64,000 bases of DNA from an uncultured Alphaproteobacteria bacterium (GCA_947627155.1 CANQUX010000005.1:13513-77512), one strand, 5' to 3'. Counted from the first letter of the stretch, positions 40,337 through 46,525 are shown. The notes: generated from the letters alone by a model not told the origin. Made by a program: numbers and translations.

Positions 40337-40699
40337 TTAATGCAATTGCAAATAGAGTTTTTCCAAAGCTTTATCGATACGTTTACGCGCCGTTCTTTCA
40401 CACATTTGCGCTTCGTTTGCCAAACGTTTCCAACCCATACCCGAAAAGCGCTTCCATAAGAGTTGCCGCTCCTTCACACTTAATCTGGGCAACCAATCAA
40501 ACTGCACGATATCGGCATCATCAACTTCCGTCGGCGTCGGACGAAAATAAATTTGCTTTTCGCGACTTTGCCGTTCAATATCCGCATAGCGCAAAGAAGA
40601 ACGCAAGCCTGTCGGATGCGGTGCCGGATATAATTTATAAATTTCGCACGCTTTTATAATTTGATTGCGTACATCATCGATTGATTTAATTTCTTCCAT
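40337..40699 (-). CDS. Hypothetical small protein with a sigma70-region-4-like HTH
   Basis: LSVKERQLLWKRFSGMGWKRLANEAQMCERTARKRIDKAL. Confidence 0.4.
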   Translation of the reverse strand: MEEIKSIDDVRNQIIKACEIYKLYPAPHPTGLRSSLRYADIERQSREKQIYFRPTPTEVDDADIVQFDWLPRLSVKERQLLWKRFSGMGWKRLANEAQMCERTARKRIDKALEKLYLQLH

Positions 40700-40892
40700 T
40701 GTTTTCCCTTTCCGTTAAATCTGATAAATAAGTTATTTTTCGTGAATAGCCGTCGTTTCGAAATTGCTGAATCAACCATTTATGTTTTTTAACAGGCAAA
40801 TAAACCGCCGTTTGCATAAACGCGATGTCGGCAATGGAAAAAGTCGGCTGTTTTTTTGATTTTTGTGAAGCATTAAAAAAAGATAAAAACAT
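40686..40892 (-). CDS. Hypothetical small protein
   Basis: ORF only. Confidence 0.25.
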   Translation of the reverse strand: MFLSFFNASQKSKKQPTFSIADIAFMQTAVYLPVKKHKWLIQQFRNDGYSRKITYLSDLTERENNGRN

Positions 40893-40904
40893 TTTTTTCG
40901 CCTC

Positions 40905-43141: not shown

Positions 43142-45325
43142 TTAAGCTCCTTTAACCTGTTTTTCAATATCTTCCAACTGCCCTTGCATTAAAATCTTCA
43201 ATGCCTGAATATCTGTATCCTCCCGTTGAGCGACAATCCAATACGGCACCCACGGAGAGGCACCCATGGAACATTTTTTCTTCATGCTTCTGTCCAAATA
43301 CCATCGCGGCGCATCAGCCAAAATCGGTCGGTTTAAGAACCCTTGGAACAACACATATTGCTTTAAGTAACTCAAACTCATCATATCGGAAGCGCCAACC
43401 ACGTTCGAACTTTGCAAAGACCGTGAAACGTTAGCGGCAAAGGGGTTTGTTTGTTGCGACACACCCTCCGTTCGAGAGGAGGAAGCCACTTCAATGGTGC
43501 GCGTACCGATCATTTTACTGAATCGTTCGGCGGTTTGTTCGTTGTTTTGTGCCAAAATCACTTTGGCGGCCGTTGTTGTAATAATGGTTTCCAAGTCATC
43601 TTTACCGTATTGCCCGGAAATCTGCCCCAAATCCTGCCCGATGAGCAAATAAGCCACCTTCTGCCCACGACCGACGGCCGGACCGTCTTTCACGGCGGCC
43701 AACTTCGGCATTTGCGGGAATTCGTCCAACACAAACAAAGTCGGATACGGCCCCGATTTAATACCGTCCGTTCCGACAAAATTCGGCGGATTGGAAATTA
43801 AGAAAGAACTCATCAATTCCACAAAAATACCGGTAATCACGTTCATGGAGCGTGCATCAACCTGATTCACCGACAAATAAACGGAAACCGGTTTAATTTC
43901 GCCCGTAATCGGATCTCTTAACCCCCGTAAATCACGGAAAGTCAAATCACTGAACTTCGTACGCATACGCACGGCGGAGTTTTTGAAAATGTTAATACCC
44001 GAAAGAGCGGTTGACAAAATAGAACCGCGTTCCTTATCCGGCGTACCGGACAATTGGTTTAATTCCACAACGGCCCGATGCGCATAAGCAAATCTGTCTG
44101 CTTCTTTCACGGCGGAATCTAACAAATCCCGCATCGGATCGGCCATCATGGCCATTTGATCACCCTCATCGGAGCGACGCTTAATATCCGCGGCAATTTT
44201 CATCTGCGACTCGGTCAGCCAGTCAAAAATCATGGCAATACACGGCTCGCACCCCTGCCATTGCGGCGGCAAGCCCTCCCATGTGCCGATGGGTGCATAA
44301 TTATCAATGGTCAGCTGTCCTTGTTGCAAAGCTTGTAATGCCATGTTGGCACTTTGATCTTTCATCCCGTCATAATAAGTGGCCAACACTTCGGCATCTT
44401 CGCGATCGAAACTGTTTTCCATTAATTTGTTAATAAAATAATCGTTTGCCCGCGCGCGTTCGCATTTACTGGAAATAAATTGCAAAAAGCCCGACATGGC
44501 GTTCCGACCTGTTTTTGACCAGTGCGGATCTGCGCCGCCTTTCGGCTCTTCCACAAGCACGGCAACCATGGAGTCGATATATTTTTCGCGATCGCTGCCC
44601 AACGGCGGTAAACACGATGCCGACAAAGGATTCCAACTCGGATAATAAATTCCTTTTTCGGGATCATCTTTTTCACCCCAGTTAATCACAAAGACAGGTC
44701 CGATGGTTGCACGATAACCCGTTGTGCTGTAACACAATTCCGGCTTCGGGTCGTTAACAATTAAACTGAGTCCCGGCGATTCCAAAATGGTTGGCACCAC
44801 CACACCGACCGTTTTACCGGTTCCCGGAGGTGCCACAACCAAACAGGAAAGCGTTTCGGGCATTTTCATCAGTTTCCCTTTAAACCGTCCCAAAACAATG
44901 CAAAATCCGTCGAACAATTTCATTTTCTTAATATCGGAAAACTCTGCCATTCGACCGCCACCGTAAATTTTCGGCATATATTCATAGGGATTTTTAATAA
45001 TGCCGACAATTAAAATCACCCAAAACATAATAAAGGGCGTAAAAGGTAAATATTCCGTCCAATGCGGATTAGACGTTTGCCAAAAATTGCTAAACCAACG
45101 TCCGTACGTGGCAAATAAATAGCCCATATTCGGAATAACTTTTTTCCAAAAGGATATGGCGGTATGGAAAGTAATAACGCTAAACCCATGGTTAAGCCAT
45201 GTGCGCAACGGAAGCATTAACCACATTAAAATAAAGAAAACAACAACGGCCGTTACCAAAGTCCAACACAGCCATGCAATAAATTTTCCTTGATCTTCAT
45301 AGGCACTGTCACGTTTAAAACCCAT
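43142..45325 (-). CDS. virD4: Type IV secretion coupling protein (VirD4/TraG/DotL family)
   Basis: N-terminal TM helices, Walker A VVAPPGTGKT, Walker B LFVLDEF. Confidence 0.85.
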   Translation of the reverse strand: MGFKRDSAYEDQGKFIAWLCWTLVTAVVVFFILMWLMLPLRTWLNHGFSVITFHTAISFWKKVIPNMGYLFATYGRWFSNFWQTSNPHWTEYLPFTPFIMFWVILIVGIIKNPYEYMPKIYGGGRMAEFSDIKKMKLFDGFCIVLGRFKGKLMKMPETLSCLVVAPPGTGKTVGVVVPTILESPGLSLIVNDPKPELCYSTTGYRATIGPVFVINWGEKDDPEKGIYYPSWNPLSASCLPPLGSDREKYIDSMVAVLVEEPKGGADPHWSKTGRNAMSGFLQFISSKCERARANDYFINKLMENSFDREDAEVLATYYDGMKDQSANMALQALQQGQLTIDNYAPIGTWEGLPPQWQGCEPCIAMIFDWLTESQMKIAADIKRRSDEGDQMAMMADPMRDLLDSAVKEADRFAYAHRAVVELNQLSGTPDKERGSILSTALSGINIFKNSAVRMRTKFSDLTFRDLRGLRDPITGEIKPVSVYLSVNQVDARSMNVITGIFVELMSSFLISNPPNFVGTDGIKSGPYPTLFVLDEFPQMPKLAAVKDGPAVGRGQKVAYLLIGQDLGQISGQYGKDDLETIITTTAAKVILAQNNEQTAERFSKMIGTRTIEVASSSRTEGVSQQTNPFAANVSRSLQSSNVVGASDMMSLSYLKQYVLFQGFLNRPILADAPRWYLDRSMKKKCSMGASPWVPYWIVAQREDTDIQALKILMQGQLEDIEKQVKGA

Positions 45326-45328
45326 TTG

Positions 45329-46525
45329 CTAACCCCCTTGTAACACCGATTGAACGGCATTAATAACATCATTTGTCGGTGGCATAACCTGCTCAACGGA
45401 TTGCGTGACCGTTTTTAATTCATCAGGCCCGCCGATATCCGTTCGACAAACGGTAACCGACATTTCTTTCCATGTTGAAATCATATCTTCCGCATTAATA
45501 ATAGTGCCTTTTCGCACAATAAACAACGGCAACACCGATCCGTTATATCCGACGGTTGATAATTTTTGCGCAAAAGCCTTAGCCAATTCAACCAATTGAA
45601 AGACCGGTGAAACCCGATGAGAGCTTTCGGAAAACCACAGCGGATCTTCACCGTTAAAGCGTTCTTCATCGGCCAACCAATCGCCCGGTTGCGAATCGGC
45701 AATACCCAATAAAATTTTATCGGCACTCATACCTAAATAATCAATGACCGTATCGTTAAAGCGCACTTTTTCAATCACCTGATAACCCGCCCGACTCATT
45801 AATTCACTGATATTTTCTTCCAACTTCATCCGCTCGGGCAATTTAATATCTTCCAACAGCATATTTTCAACGGCGGAAGTCTGATTCCGATCGGCCGCCG
45901 GACTGGGCGCAACGGAAAGCCCCTGCATCATGGACGGCACGGTATATCCTTTATTAAACGGCGAATCGCTCGGCGGTGTATAAGCCGAATGACGCCCGGA
46001 ACGCGGCGGCAGCATAAAATCTTCGTCATCATCTTCATCAAACTCAATGCCATAGGAGGAGGCTTGCCTTTTCGGCAATATCGGCTCCTCAACCGGCACT
46101 TTAAGCTCGGATTCTTTCACTTCGGGACGATACCCCGTTTCCAGCGGGCGCGGCCGAATGGTTTTAGAAGAGCGTTTTTTCAGTTTCACCTTATAACTGC
46201 CGCGATGTAACATATCGGCACCGGTGAAGAAATAAATTAACCGATTGACATTGCGTCGCAACAATTTCAGCCATTCCACTTTCAGGAAAAATCGCCAACC
46301 GATTAAATAAAGCGGTACGGCAGAAAACAGCACGATGAAGAAAATAACCGTTCCTCTGTCATCAATATTCCACCCCTGTTGAAATTCATTCCACAAAAAG
46401 CGCCAATGATTCCAGTTAAAAATATGGAAATCCCAGTTGTCCGTTAAAAAATTATTGACAAGCCAACCAAGAAAAATCCAGCCCCAGATAAAGCCGATAA
46501 CAAGTATTCTAACCCATTTATTCAT
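45329..46525 (-). CDS. Inner-membrane protein translationally coupled to virD4; candidate coupling-complex partner
   Basis: Two N-terminal TM helices, an acidic stretch EFDEDDDEDF, and a stop 3 nt before the virD4 start. Confidence 0.45.
   Translation of the reverse strand: MNKWVRILVIGFIWGWIFLGWLVNNFLTDNWDFHIFNWNHWRFLWNEFQQGWNIDDRGTVIFFIVLFSAVPLYLIGWRFFLKVEWLKLLRRNVNRLIYFFTGADMLHRGSYKVKLKKRSSKTIRPRPLETGYRPEVKESELKVPVEEPILPKRQASSYGIEFDEDDDEDFMLPPRSGRHSAYTPPSDSPFNKGYTVPSMMQGLSVAPSPAADRNQTSAVENMLLEDIKLPERMKLEENISELMSRAGYQVIEKVRFNDTVIDYLGMSADKILLGIADSQPGDWLADEERFNGEDPLWFSESSHRVSPVFQLVELAKAFAQKLSTVGYNGSVLPLFIVRKGTIINAEDMISTWKEMSVTVCRTDIGGPDELKTVTQSVEQVMPPTNDVINAVQSVLQGG

Follow-up and report, generated by a model that had tools for sequence, protein, structure and literature searches.

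A conserved operon of uncultured Alphaproteobacteria joins a VirD4/TraG-type coupling protein to a predicted HNH nuclease toxin and a SUKH/YrhA-family partner

The locus and its four proteins

We analyzed a 64,000-nucleotide stretch of DNA from an uncultured Alphaproteobacteria bacterium (GCA_947627155.1, CANQUX010000005.1:13513-77512), hereafter the window, focusing on a locus in which a predicted coupling protein (T4CP) of a type IV secretion system (T4SS) is encoded beside a nuclease-like protein and a putative immunity protein. ORF calling finds seven minus-strand open reading frames (ORFs) with the positions and lengths given by a first reading of the sequence alone, and public gene calls on identical metagenomic contigs return the same lengths (398, 727, 277, 148, 187, 68 and 120 aa). 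Four of these genes form a tightly packed cassette: the stop of the 398-aa gene lies 3 nt before the start of the 727-aa gene, the stop of the latter (43142) directly adjoins the TTG start of the 277-aa gene (43141; gap of 0 nt), and 1 nt separates the 277-aa stop from the 148-aa start. The sequence-only reading also described flanks of mrcA and tRNA-Ser, pilin-like neighbors, an AT-rich spacer after the cassette and a window that is free of VirB and Dot genes; all of these were reproduced. Features of the locus and its surroundings are listed in Table 1.

Table 1. Positions of the cassette genes, their domains and neighboring features, counted from the first letter of the window.
Feature	Position	Strand	Remarks
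Cassette (four genes)	41860-46525	-	
398-aa T4CP-associated inner-membrane protein	45329..46525	-	residues 235-398 = 45332-45823
727-aa VirD4/TraG-type coupling protein	43142..45325	-	Pfam profiles, Walker A/B
277-aa protein, N-terminal region, residues 1-98	42848..43141	-	acidic, length-variable, predicted disordered
Predicted YhhZ-type HNH (His-Me finger) nuclease toxin domain, residues ~99-238	42428..42847	-	invariant H180, N195, H205, H209
Toxin C-terminal tail, residues 239-277	42311..42427	-	basic, partly disordered, candidate T4CP recognition signal
148-aa SUKH/YrhA-family protein	41860..42306	-	presumed cytoplasmic immunity protein; NCBIfam NF038335
Promoter-like site	46688..46715	-	TTGCCT-16-TATAAT, ~160 nt upstream of first cassette gene; consensus match only
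Three small genes (187 aa, 68 aa, 120-aa DUF6362 helix-turn-helix)	40337..41468	-	neighbors, outside conserved cassette
Promoter-like site of the small genes	41531-41503		
AT-rich spacer after cassette			391 bp; enclosing 1-kb bin (41001-42000) ~30% GC
mrcA	37769-40177		
Cys-rich protein, 548 aa	46759-48405	-	type IV pilin-like N-terminus
Cys-rich protein, 539 aa	49050-50669	+	type IV pilin-like N-terminus
tRNA-Ser	50696-50783		
MazF/PemK-like toxin (119 aa) and MazE-like antitoxin (71 aa)	50832-51340	-	adjoining tRNA-Ser
PilT-like stand-alone ATPase, 434 aa	17320-18624	+	between nusA-infB operon and htpG
tRNA-Gly	27991-28064		
Serine recombinase (Resolvase + HTH_38)	28124-28858	+	directly after tRNA-Gly

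The 727-aa protein had been read as a VirD4/TraG-type T4CP, and profile searches bear this out. It matches the Pfam families T4SS-DNA_transf (PF02534; E 1.6e-50, 172.8 bits against a cut-off of 20.1), TraG-D_C (PF12696; E 1.7e-21, 76.9 bits) and TrwB_AAD_bind (PF10412; E 4.3e-21, 75.7 bits), all above threshold, and the Walker A (PPGTGKT) and Walker B (FVLDEF) motifs are intact in 40 of 40 full-length orthologues. Hydrophobic N-terminal helices can be read directly from the sequence at residues ~17-45 and ~95-112. The protein scores under the cut-off of every NCBIfam equivalog model, and a phmmer search of the PDB matched no chain. Its nearest plasmid relatives, T4CPs that end virB4...virB8-9-10-11-virD4 operons on Erythrobacter and Sphingosinicella megaplasmids, are ~32% identical. 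Judged by homology, the 727-aa protein is a divergent T4CP of the VirD4/TraG type.

For the 277-aa protein, an HNH/EndoVII spacing had been noted within the last ~110 residues. The motif is present (H180-x3-P184-x3-G188G189-x4-N194N195-x9-H205-x3-H209), with four residues between GG and NN and not five, and the domain is longer than proposed, covering ~140 residues (~99-238) ahead of a ~40-aa tail. H180, N195, H205 and H209 are invariant in the family alignment and form the HNH pattern. The AlphaFold model is confident over residues ~100-240; its fold matches include Gme HNH, and the core displays the beta-beta-alpha-metal fold, in which one His is catalytic, an Asn is structural and other His residues bind metal. 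Direct profile searches were silent: the protein has no match in Pfam or NCBIfam, Pfam stays empty at E <= 1, including its toxin families (AHH, LHH, WHH and others), and a PDB sequence search with the toxin family found no match. The Pfam HNH model remains under threshold for the window protein and gives weak matches in relatives only.

The family profile, searched against 1.84 billion representative proteins, recovered 505 relatives, in many of which the ~140-residue core occupies the extreme C-terminus of a long protein. Carriers identified by Pfam are Rhs (P0305), PT-HINT (P0335), PT-TG (P0387), MuF_C (P0325) and Portal_Mu (P0338). Likewise, hhalign aligns the core with residues 256-385 of E. 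coli K-12 YhhZ (probability 97.9%, E 5.1e-13, 32% identity over 126 columns), a "putative endonuclease" by annotation and an Hcp-fused protein of group 32 of the His-Me finger superfamily that is regarded as a type VI secretion system (T6SS) effector type (PMC5714182, PMC2907695). Its homologues, YhhZ and the toxin domains at the C-termini of Rhs, PT-HINT, PT-TG and MuF proteins, identify the core as a YhhZ-type HNH (His-Me finger) nuclease domain of a toxin family, in agreement with the toxin domain first proposed. A C-terminal toxin domain shared across different carriers is found here, as in polymorphic toxins. The label polymorphic does not suit the locus itself: each of more than 48 loci has one orthologous toxin gene and one immunity gene, and the sampled DNA holds no variable tips or orphan cassettes. 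Tox-REHH (bioRxiv 10.64898/2026.09.22.753552) was considered and set aside as another family, the spacing of its R46, H52, E53, H102 and H121 differing from that of H180, N195, H205 and H209.

No trafficking domain of the T2, T5, T6 or T7 type was detected by Pfam in the 277-aa protein. What precedes the core is a stretch of ~95-98 residues that varies in length, whose first 60 residues have a mean net charge of -9.7; the predicted local distance difference test score (pLDDT) is <50 across most of residues 1-98.

At the other end, toxins linked to the T4CP carry a conserved extension of ~40 residues past the nuclease core (TGSGGKNKQDRS...AGF...MPGR), in which GSGGK-K-D-S and the terminal MPGR are invariant. 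The last 35 residues have a net charge of +3 to +5 in 43 of 43 orthologues, all of which terminate in MPGR, and residues 243-259 are partly disordered (pLDDT <50). T4CP-linked toxins of outgroup lineages keep the tail as SGGK..DRSVYAGF....GR, whereas Rhs, HINT, MuF and YhhZ homologues lack it, the match stopping at the end of the core (~profile position 186). Because substrates of the Agrobacterium VirB/D4 system bear short, positively charged C-terminal signals, we infer by analogy that the tail is likely a T4CP recognition element or secretion signal. A tail-profile search of ~1 Mb of loci and the window returned no effectors beyond the orthologues. As for XVIPCD (~120 aa), the 277-aa protein gave no Pfam match at E <= 1, presuming that the Pfam copy has an XVIPCD model, and the tail has only ~40 aa.

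The 148-aa protein, first described as SUKH-like and in the position of an immunity gene, falls within the YrhA family (NCBIfam NF038335, 59.8 bits against a curated cut-off of 55), with Pfam SUKH-1 itself below threshold. Among 29 orthologues the only Pfam families matched are of the SUKH group, namely SUKH-1 (11), SUKH_6 (4) and SUKH_5 (1), all under the gathering threshold, and a PDB sequence search with the immunity family gave no match. An hhalign comparison with E. coli YrhA yields a probability of 95.6% (E 1.2e-8). The gene directly follows the toxin gene at every locus; the yrhA gene of E. coli K-12 likewise abuts its toxin gene, overlapping the yhhZ stop codon. Since the core is homologous to YhhZ and the 148-aa protein to YrhA, and the two genes are adjacent in E. 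coli, the gene pair is homologous to yhhZ-yrhA. At the level of homology, then, the toxin/immunity reading is borne out. From this kinship the 148-aa protein is presumed to be a cytoplasmic immunity protein for the HNH toxin.

The first gene of the cassette encodes a protein with two N-terminal transmembrane helices (residues ~6-27 and 59-81), a disordered linker of ~130 residues containing an acidic patch (~104-233) and a confidently modeled C-terminal domain (235-398). No family matches it, apart from a precomputed NERD match for a single homologue; PDB sequence matches for the family were to ATP synthase subunit b only and were rejected as spurious. The modeled cytoplasmic domain has a restriction-endonuclease-like fold of the PD-(D/E)xK/NERD-like kind, and its fold matches include Can2, NucC and Shedu. 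Its catalytic triad is not conserved: the strand-2 Asp column contains D, N, S, A or G, and the third motif, D277-x-Q/E, has no conserved Lys. Because the catalytic D...(D/E)xK residues vary, the domain is likely a non-catalytic binding module. A long acidic loop, GDWLADEE-FNGE-PLWFSE, is invariant in the family. The operon had been likened to the DotM-DotL coupling subcomplex, with the caution that the likeness was one of architecture only; the architecture stands, and homology to DotM is rejected on the NERD-like fold. Our literature library, which is incomplete, contained no description of a T4CP-HNH-SUKH cassette or of a NERD-like partner.

Conservation and genomic setting of the cassette

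A scan of one genome per GTDB species located the cassette at 42 related species loci, all from metagenome-assembled genomes (MAGs) of uncultured Alphaproteobacteria. Where record titles name a source, it is the gut of rabbit, roe deer, sheep, yak, water buffalo, or Hadza and Nepalese people. The order T4CP, toxin, immunity is identical at 42 of 42 loci, and the 398-aa gene stands upstream wherever the contig extends far enough. Outgroup loci in other Alphaproteobacteria MAGs share this layout, with a 398-aa orthologue (often accompanied by 1-3 paralogues), a T4CP 62-63% identical, a toxin 32-48% identical and an immunity protein of 144 aa. Altogether the 42 GTDB species loci, and six outgroup loci with them, keep the four-gene order and its tight spacing, a recurrence far beyond chance, and clustering of all flanking ORFs yields only the four cassette genes as universal families.

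The surroundings of the cassette change between groups. In the window and its closest relatives it lies by mrcA-prfB, in a second group by AsmA-TrkH-ClpB and in a third by rsmB-ftsZ-ftsA-ftsQ-ddl-murB. Across the 42 loci, identity to the window proteins is 71-98% for the T4CP, 51-96% for the toxin (best aligned segment), 34-87% for the 398-aa protein and 30-99% for the immunity protein. Where a locus and the window have housekeeping genes in common, conservation of the T4CP equals or exceeds that of release factor 2 (PrfB) and exceeds that of PBP1A: identities of T4CP, PrfB and PBP1A are 92%, 85% and 84% at locus L010, 74%, 74% and 66% at L043, and 75%, 72% and 65% at L045, and at L014, where PBP1A is absent from the locus, 90% for the T4CP and 81% for PrfB. 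The cassette is under strong purifying selection, and its GC content (0.40-0.48) equals that of its surroundings. Together the data show that the cassette is a vertically inherited, strongly constrained core module. They overturn the earlier view of a horizontally acquired island, given that all 42 species have the cassette, in varied core contexts, with a PrfB-like degree of T4CP conservation and native GC.

The link to a T4SS that the sequence-only reading had proposed is backed by channel genes beside the cassette in relatives. At two loci (L032 and L060) genes for a giant VirB10/TrbI-like protein and for VirB11 lie directly upstream of the cassette on the same strand; this VirB11 is 41% identical to an Erythrobacter VirB11, and its best NCBIfam match is full-length to the VirB11 model. 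In GCA_963636545.1 (L059 and L062), CagX/VirB9, a 2199-aa TrbI/VirB10 and VirB11 are encoded directly downstream and convergently. In one outgroup clade, two or three tandem TrbL/VirB6-like genes adjoin the cassette divergently and are followed by housekeeping genes. The recurrence of VirB linkage after rearrangement argues for a functional connection between the cassette and a T4SS. Beyond the outgroup VirB6-like genes, a walk along the DNA reached one more VirB6-like paralogue, the third, followed by housekeeping genes; VirB4 was not among them. Judged by these homologies, the lineage owns T4SS channel genes that are scattered in most of its genomes.

Some features of these loci deserve mention in their own right. 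The giant VirB10/TrbI protein has 2199 aa in L062 (9442-16041) and at least 1427 aa in L032 (19-4302), with its VirB10 domain preceded by a long region of Gly-rich beta-repeats, and in L062 its gene is preceded by that of the CagX/VirB9 protein (16066-17515, at least 577 aa). The outgroup VirB6-like clusters occupy L051 1-2722, L053 1-2616, L054 1-2939, L056 10001-15116 and L057 10001-15690; that of L054 adjoins dnaA-dnaN-recF-gyrB. Four species have an additional, uncharacterized 146-aa ORF that separates the 398-aa gene from that of the T4CP (L012 6822-7259 and the equivalent positions in L013-L015). In 16-17 species the cassette is preceded by genes for a 93-aa RHH_4 protein (L003 6210-6491 and 15 other loci), which may be a regulator, and for a divergent J-domain protein of 184 aa. 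The small RHH_4 gene occupies, in 16 related loci, the place where the window has the promoter-like site upstream of the cassette. Such promoter-like sites are no more numerous in the region than in shuffled sequence.

The three small genes downstream had been grouped with the cassette. Beyond the closest relatives (L006-L011) they do not occur, and they have an apparent promoter-like site of their own, so that this grouping was dropped; the AT-rich spacer holds that site and a ribosome-binding site serving the 187-aa gene. The 187-aa protein evolves fast, with 50-58% identity where the T4CP has 88-98%, and the 120-aa helix-turn-helix protein matches DUF6362 (E 3.4e-10) and phrog_6836, the sole PHROGs match of the locus.

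The window as a whole is chromosomal core DNA near the replication origin, with dnaA, parAB, nusA-infB and htpG, and further with nrdD, ATP synthase subunits, lpxC, prfB, mrcA, dnaQ and cysS. An Rfam scan of it detected two tRNAs and nothing else. The two divergent genes for Cys-rich, pilin-like proteins share a ~900-nt inverted duplication of their 5' halves and upstream regions (for example, 47987-48289 and 49151-49453 are 91% complementary), and both products have weak NCBIfam matches to Myxococcus TraA Cys-rich repeats; pilin-like N-termini also adjoin the cassette in L029-L032. The PilT-like protein, below all NCBIfam cut-offs, is the only secretion-type ATPase in the window. The serine recombinase gene, which is followed by a sialyltransferase-like gene, may encode an invertase or mark a small integrated element.

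Proposed function and alternative readings

We consider it reasonably probable that the cassette is the substrate-recruitment module of a scattered, vertically inherited chromosomal T4SS of the VirB/VirD4 type that delivers a dedicated DNase effector. The effector would be the 277-aa protein, a YhhZ-type HNH DNase domain that has acquired a short basic tail probably recognized by the T4CP. In the producer cytoplasm the 148-aa SUKH/YrhA protein would bind and silence the DNase until export, and it would also guard against the toxin of sister cells. The T4CP, as an ATP-driven hexamer, would pass the toxin on to the VirB channel. A lineage-specific partner of the T4CP, the 398-aa protein, would offer its degenerate NERD-like domain as an adaptor or docking platform, its invariant acidic loop being a candidate binding site for the basic tail. 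The DNase would then be delivered into a contacted cell. Neighboring bacteria are the most likely target, and a eukaryote or protist a less likely one; the immunity gene is to be expected in either case, because a DNase made in the producer cytoplasm needs an inhibitor whatever its target.

Several points weigh against this proposal. The 64-kb window is VirB-free, and the rest of this genome lay beyond inspection. The tail resembles neither XVIPCD nor any modeled signal domain, and the nuclease-like fold of the 398-aa protein could mean DNA handling instead of an adaptor role. Interbacterial weapons do not usually combine a toxin present throughout a clade with a T4CP conserved to the level of release factor 2, a hint that the role may be more central. 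Moreover, the DNase activity of the toxin, its neutralization by the 148-aa protein and its secretion by a T4SS are functions predicted from sequence.

A more central role has its own, bolder form, which we regard as unlikely. The T4SS and DNase would be a lifestyle-defining organelle, with contact-dependent nuclease injection obligatory for predatory, epibiotic or parasitic feeding on the DNA of neighbors, and the NERD-like protein and T4CP would make up a coupling complex of a new kind, one that reads a short basic signal at the C-terminus. Such an organelle would explain the translation-factor-level conservation of the T4CP, the NERD-like partner family with its paralogues in sister clades, and the giant VirB10.

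The possibility of DNA handling can be extended to the whole cassette: in a DNA-transfer machine the T4CP would export or import DNA, the HNH protein would nick or process it in place of a relaxase, the NERD-like protein would hold it at the membrane, and the SUKH protein would regulate the nuclease. Each of the four proteins does have a fold or a partner tied to DNA (the T4CP is FtsK-like, two others have PD-(D/E)xK-like and HNH domains, and the fourth is a nuclease inhibitor by family), no relaxase is seen near the cassette, pilin-like genes and a PilT-like ATPase lie nearby, and some HNH enzymes are nickases, Gme HNH being among the fold matches. However, the HNH core groups with YhhZ and with toxins on Rhs, HINT, MuF and Hcp carriers and not with processing enzymes, the PD-(D/E)xK catalytic residues are unconserved, no oriT-like or relaxase component was found, and SUKH partners characteristically belong to toxin immunity (PMC3113570). 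We therefore hold DNA transfer to be quite improbable.

It is more doubtful still that the T4CP is a mere neighbor of a toxin-antitoxin or orphan toxin/immunity pair, which would act inside the cell or be kept for immunity alone. Toxin export is itself a prediction, and in E. coli K-12 the yhhZ-yrhA pair is outside any T6SS locus (PMC2907695). Against an orphan pair, the window shows spacing of 0-3 nt to the T4CP gene, and more than 48 loci, some deeply diverged, keep one gene order; the catalytic residues do not vary, only T4CP-linked members have the tail, and chromosomal core genes have no need of an addiction module.

Anti-phage or anti-plasmid defense, in which the T4CP-like ATPase would sense incoming DNA and free the HNH nuclease from its SUKH inhibitor for an abortive or degradative response, seems to us very improbable. 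The combination of nuclease, ATPase and inhibitor is a common defense architecture, the 398-aa domain has the defense nucleases Can2, NucC and Shedu among its fold matches, and PADLOC reports a weak match of the T4CP C-terminal region to mad8 (E 8.2e-4); it reports nothing for the other six proteins. Defense systems are patchy and mobile, whereas the cassette is clade-universal, with an ATPase conserved like release factor 2 and with linkage to VirB9/10/11 and VirB6-like genes.

The framing of the sequence-only reading, a recently acquired mobile island or integrative element remnant at tRNA-Ser carrying a T4CP and a polymorphic toxin, is contradicted and hardly credible: tRNA-Ser, the MazEF pair and the AT-rich spacer are indeed close by, and T4CPs are typical of integrative and conjugative or mobilizable elements (PMC5704250), but integrase, relaxase and direct repeats are all absent at the cassette, its GC is that of its surroundings, its divergence tracks that of housekeeping genes, and 42 of 42 related species have it in core contexts such as ftsZ-mur, AsmA-TrkH and mrcA-prfB.

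Comparison with known systems

Delivery of antibacterial toxins by a T4SS, with immunity genes adjacent to the toxin genes, is established in Xanthomonadales (PMC6536674, PMC11253643), and on comparison of architecture the bacteria-killing X-T4SS with its X-Tfe/X-Tfi pairs appears to be the closest functional analogue of the proposed recruitment module. The systems of Xanthomonas citri, Stenotrophomonas maltophilia (including the nuclease TfdA) and Lysobacter are likewise chromosomal and of the VirB/VirD4 type, with adjacent immunity genes and nuclease effectors (PMC6536674, PMC11253643, PMC8740702). In the X-T4SS, an element at the C-terminus of the effector serves for its recruitment by VirD4, and the candidate tail of the cassette toxin would correspond to this element. 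Unlike in the X-T4SS, the tail has ~40 aa and no XVIPCD match, a single effector is hard-wired into the T4CP operon in place of a dispersed repertoire, and a NERD-like membrane partner is added; genes of the T4SS lie dispersed, the hosts are gut Alphaproteobacteria, and the T4CP shows housekeeping-level conservation.

E. coli YhhZ-YrhA is homologous to the cassette in both members of the pair, the toxin core (hhalign 97.9%) and the SUKH-like gene that follows it (95.6%), and an Hcp-fused HNH-DNase is known to kill through a T6SS (PMC6730261). In contrast to YhhZ-YrhA and Hcp-ET, the cassette toxin has no Hcp/T6SS carrier, and it has an acidic disordered N-terminus, a basic tail and a T4CP context. 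Polymorphic toxins with SUKH immunity (Zhang, Iyer and Aravind 2011, 2012) resemble it in having an HNH domain, common to Rhs, PT-HINT, PT-TG and MuF proteins, followed by a SUKH-superfamily gene (PMC3113570), and differ from it in that the cassette is a single conserved orthologue per genome, with no cassette arrays. A 2012 survey concluded that classical polymorphic toxins apparently do not use T4SSs (PMC3482391); the cassette would be a case of such a toxin domain re-addressed to a T4SS.

Two further systems offer structural parallels. In Dot/Icm, the DotL-DotM (IcmO-IcmP) pair likewise presents a membrane partner gene followed by a T4CP gene, the partner having transmembrane helices at its N-terminus and, in the cytoplasm, a domain with the potential to bind charged signals of effectors. 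The rvh T4SS of Rickettsiales is also an alphaproteobacterial, chromosomal, vertically inherited P-type T4SS with split loci, VirB6 paralogues and a conserved RvhD4; a bacteria-killing role has been proposed for it in basal free-living or ancestral lineages (PMC9352585, PMC11077975). Term searches of these two papers found neither a T4CP-linked HNH/SUKH pair nor a NERD-like partner, and the giant VirB10 (2199 aa) belongs to the cassette lineage.

If the proposed role is correct, T4SS toxin delivery would reach past Xanthomonadales to widespread uncultured Alphaproteobacteria of the human and animal gut. The addition of a tail of ~40 residues would be a way to re-address to a T4SS a toxin domain that T6SS, Rhs and phage carriers have in circulation, and the 398-aa proteins would form a new, structurally distinct family of T4CP partners. 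Housekeeping-level conservation makes the module a simple genetic marker of the clade. With its one effector, immunity protein, putative signal and adaptor, the module offers a testable handle on how these bacteria interact with their neighbors.

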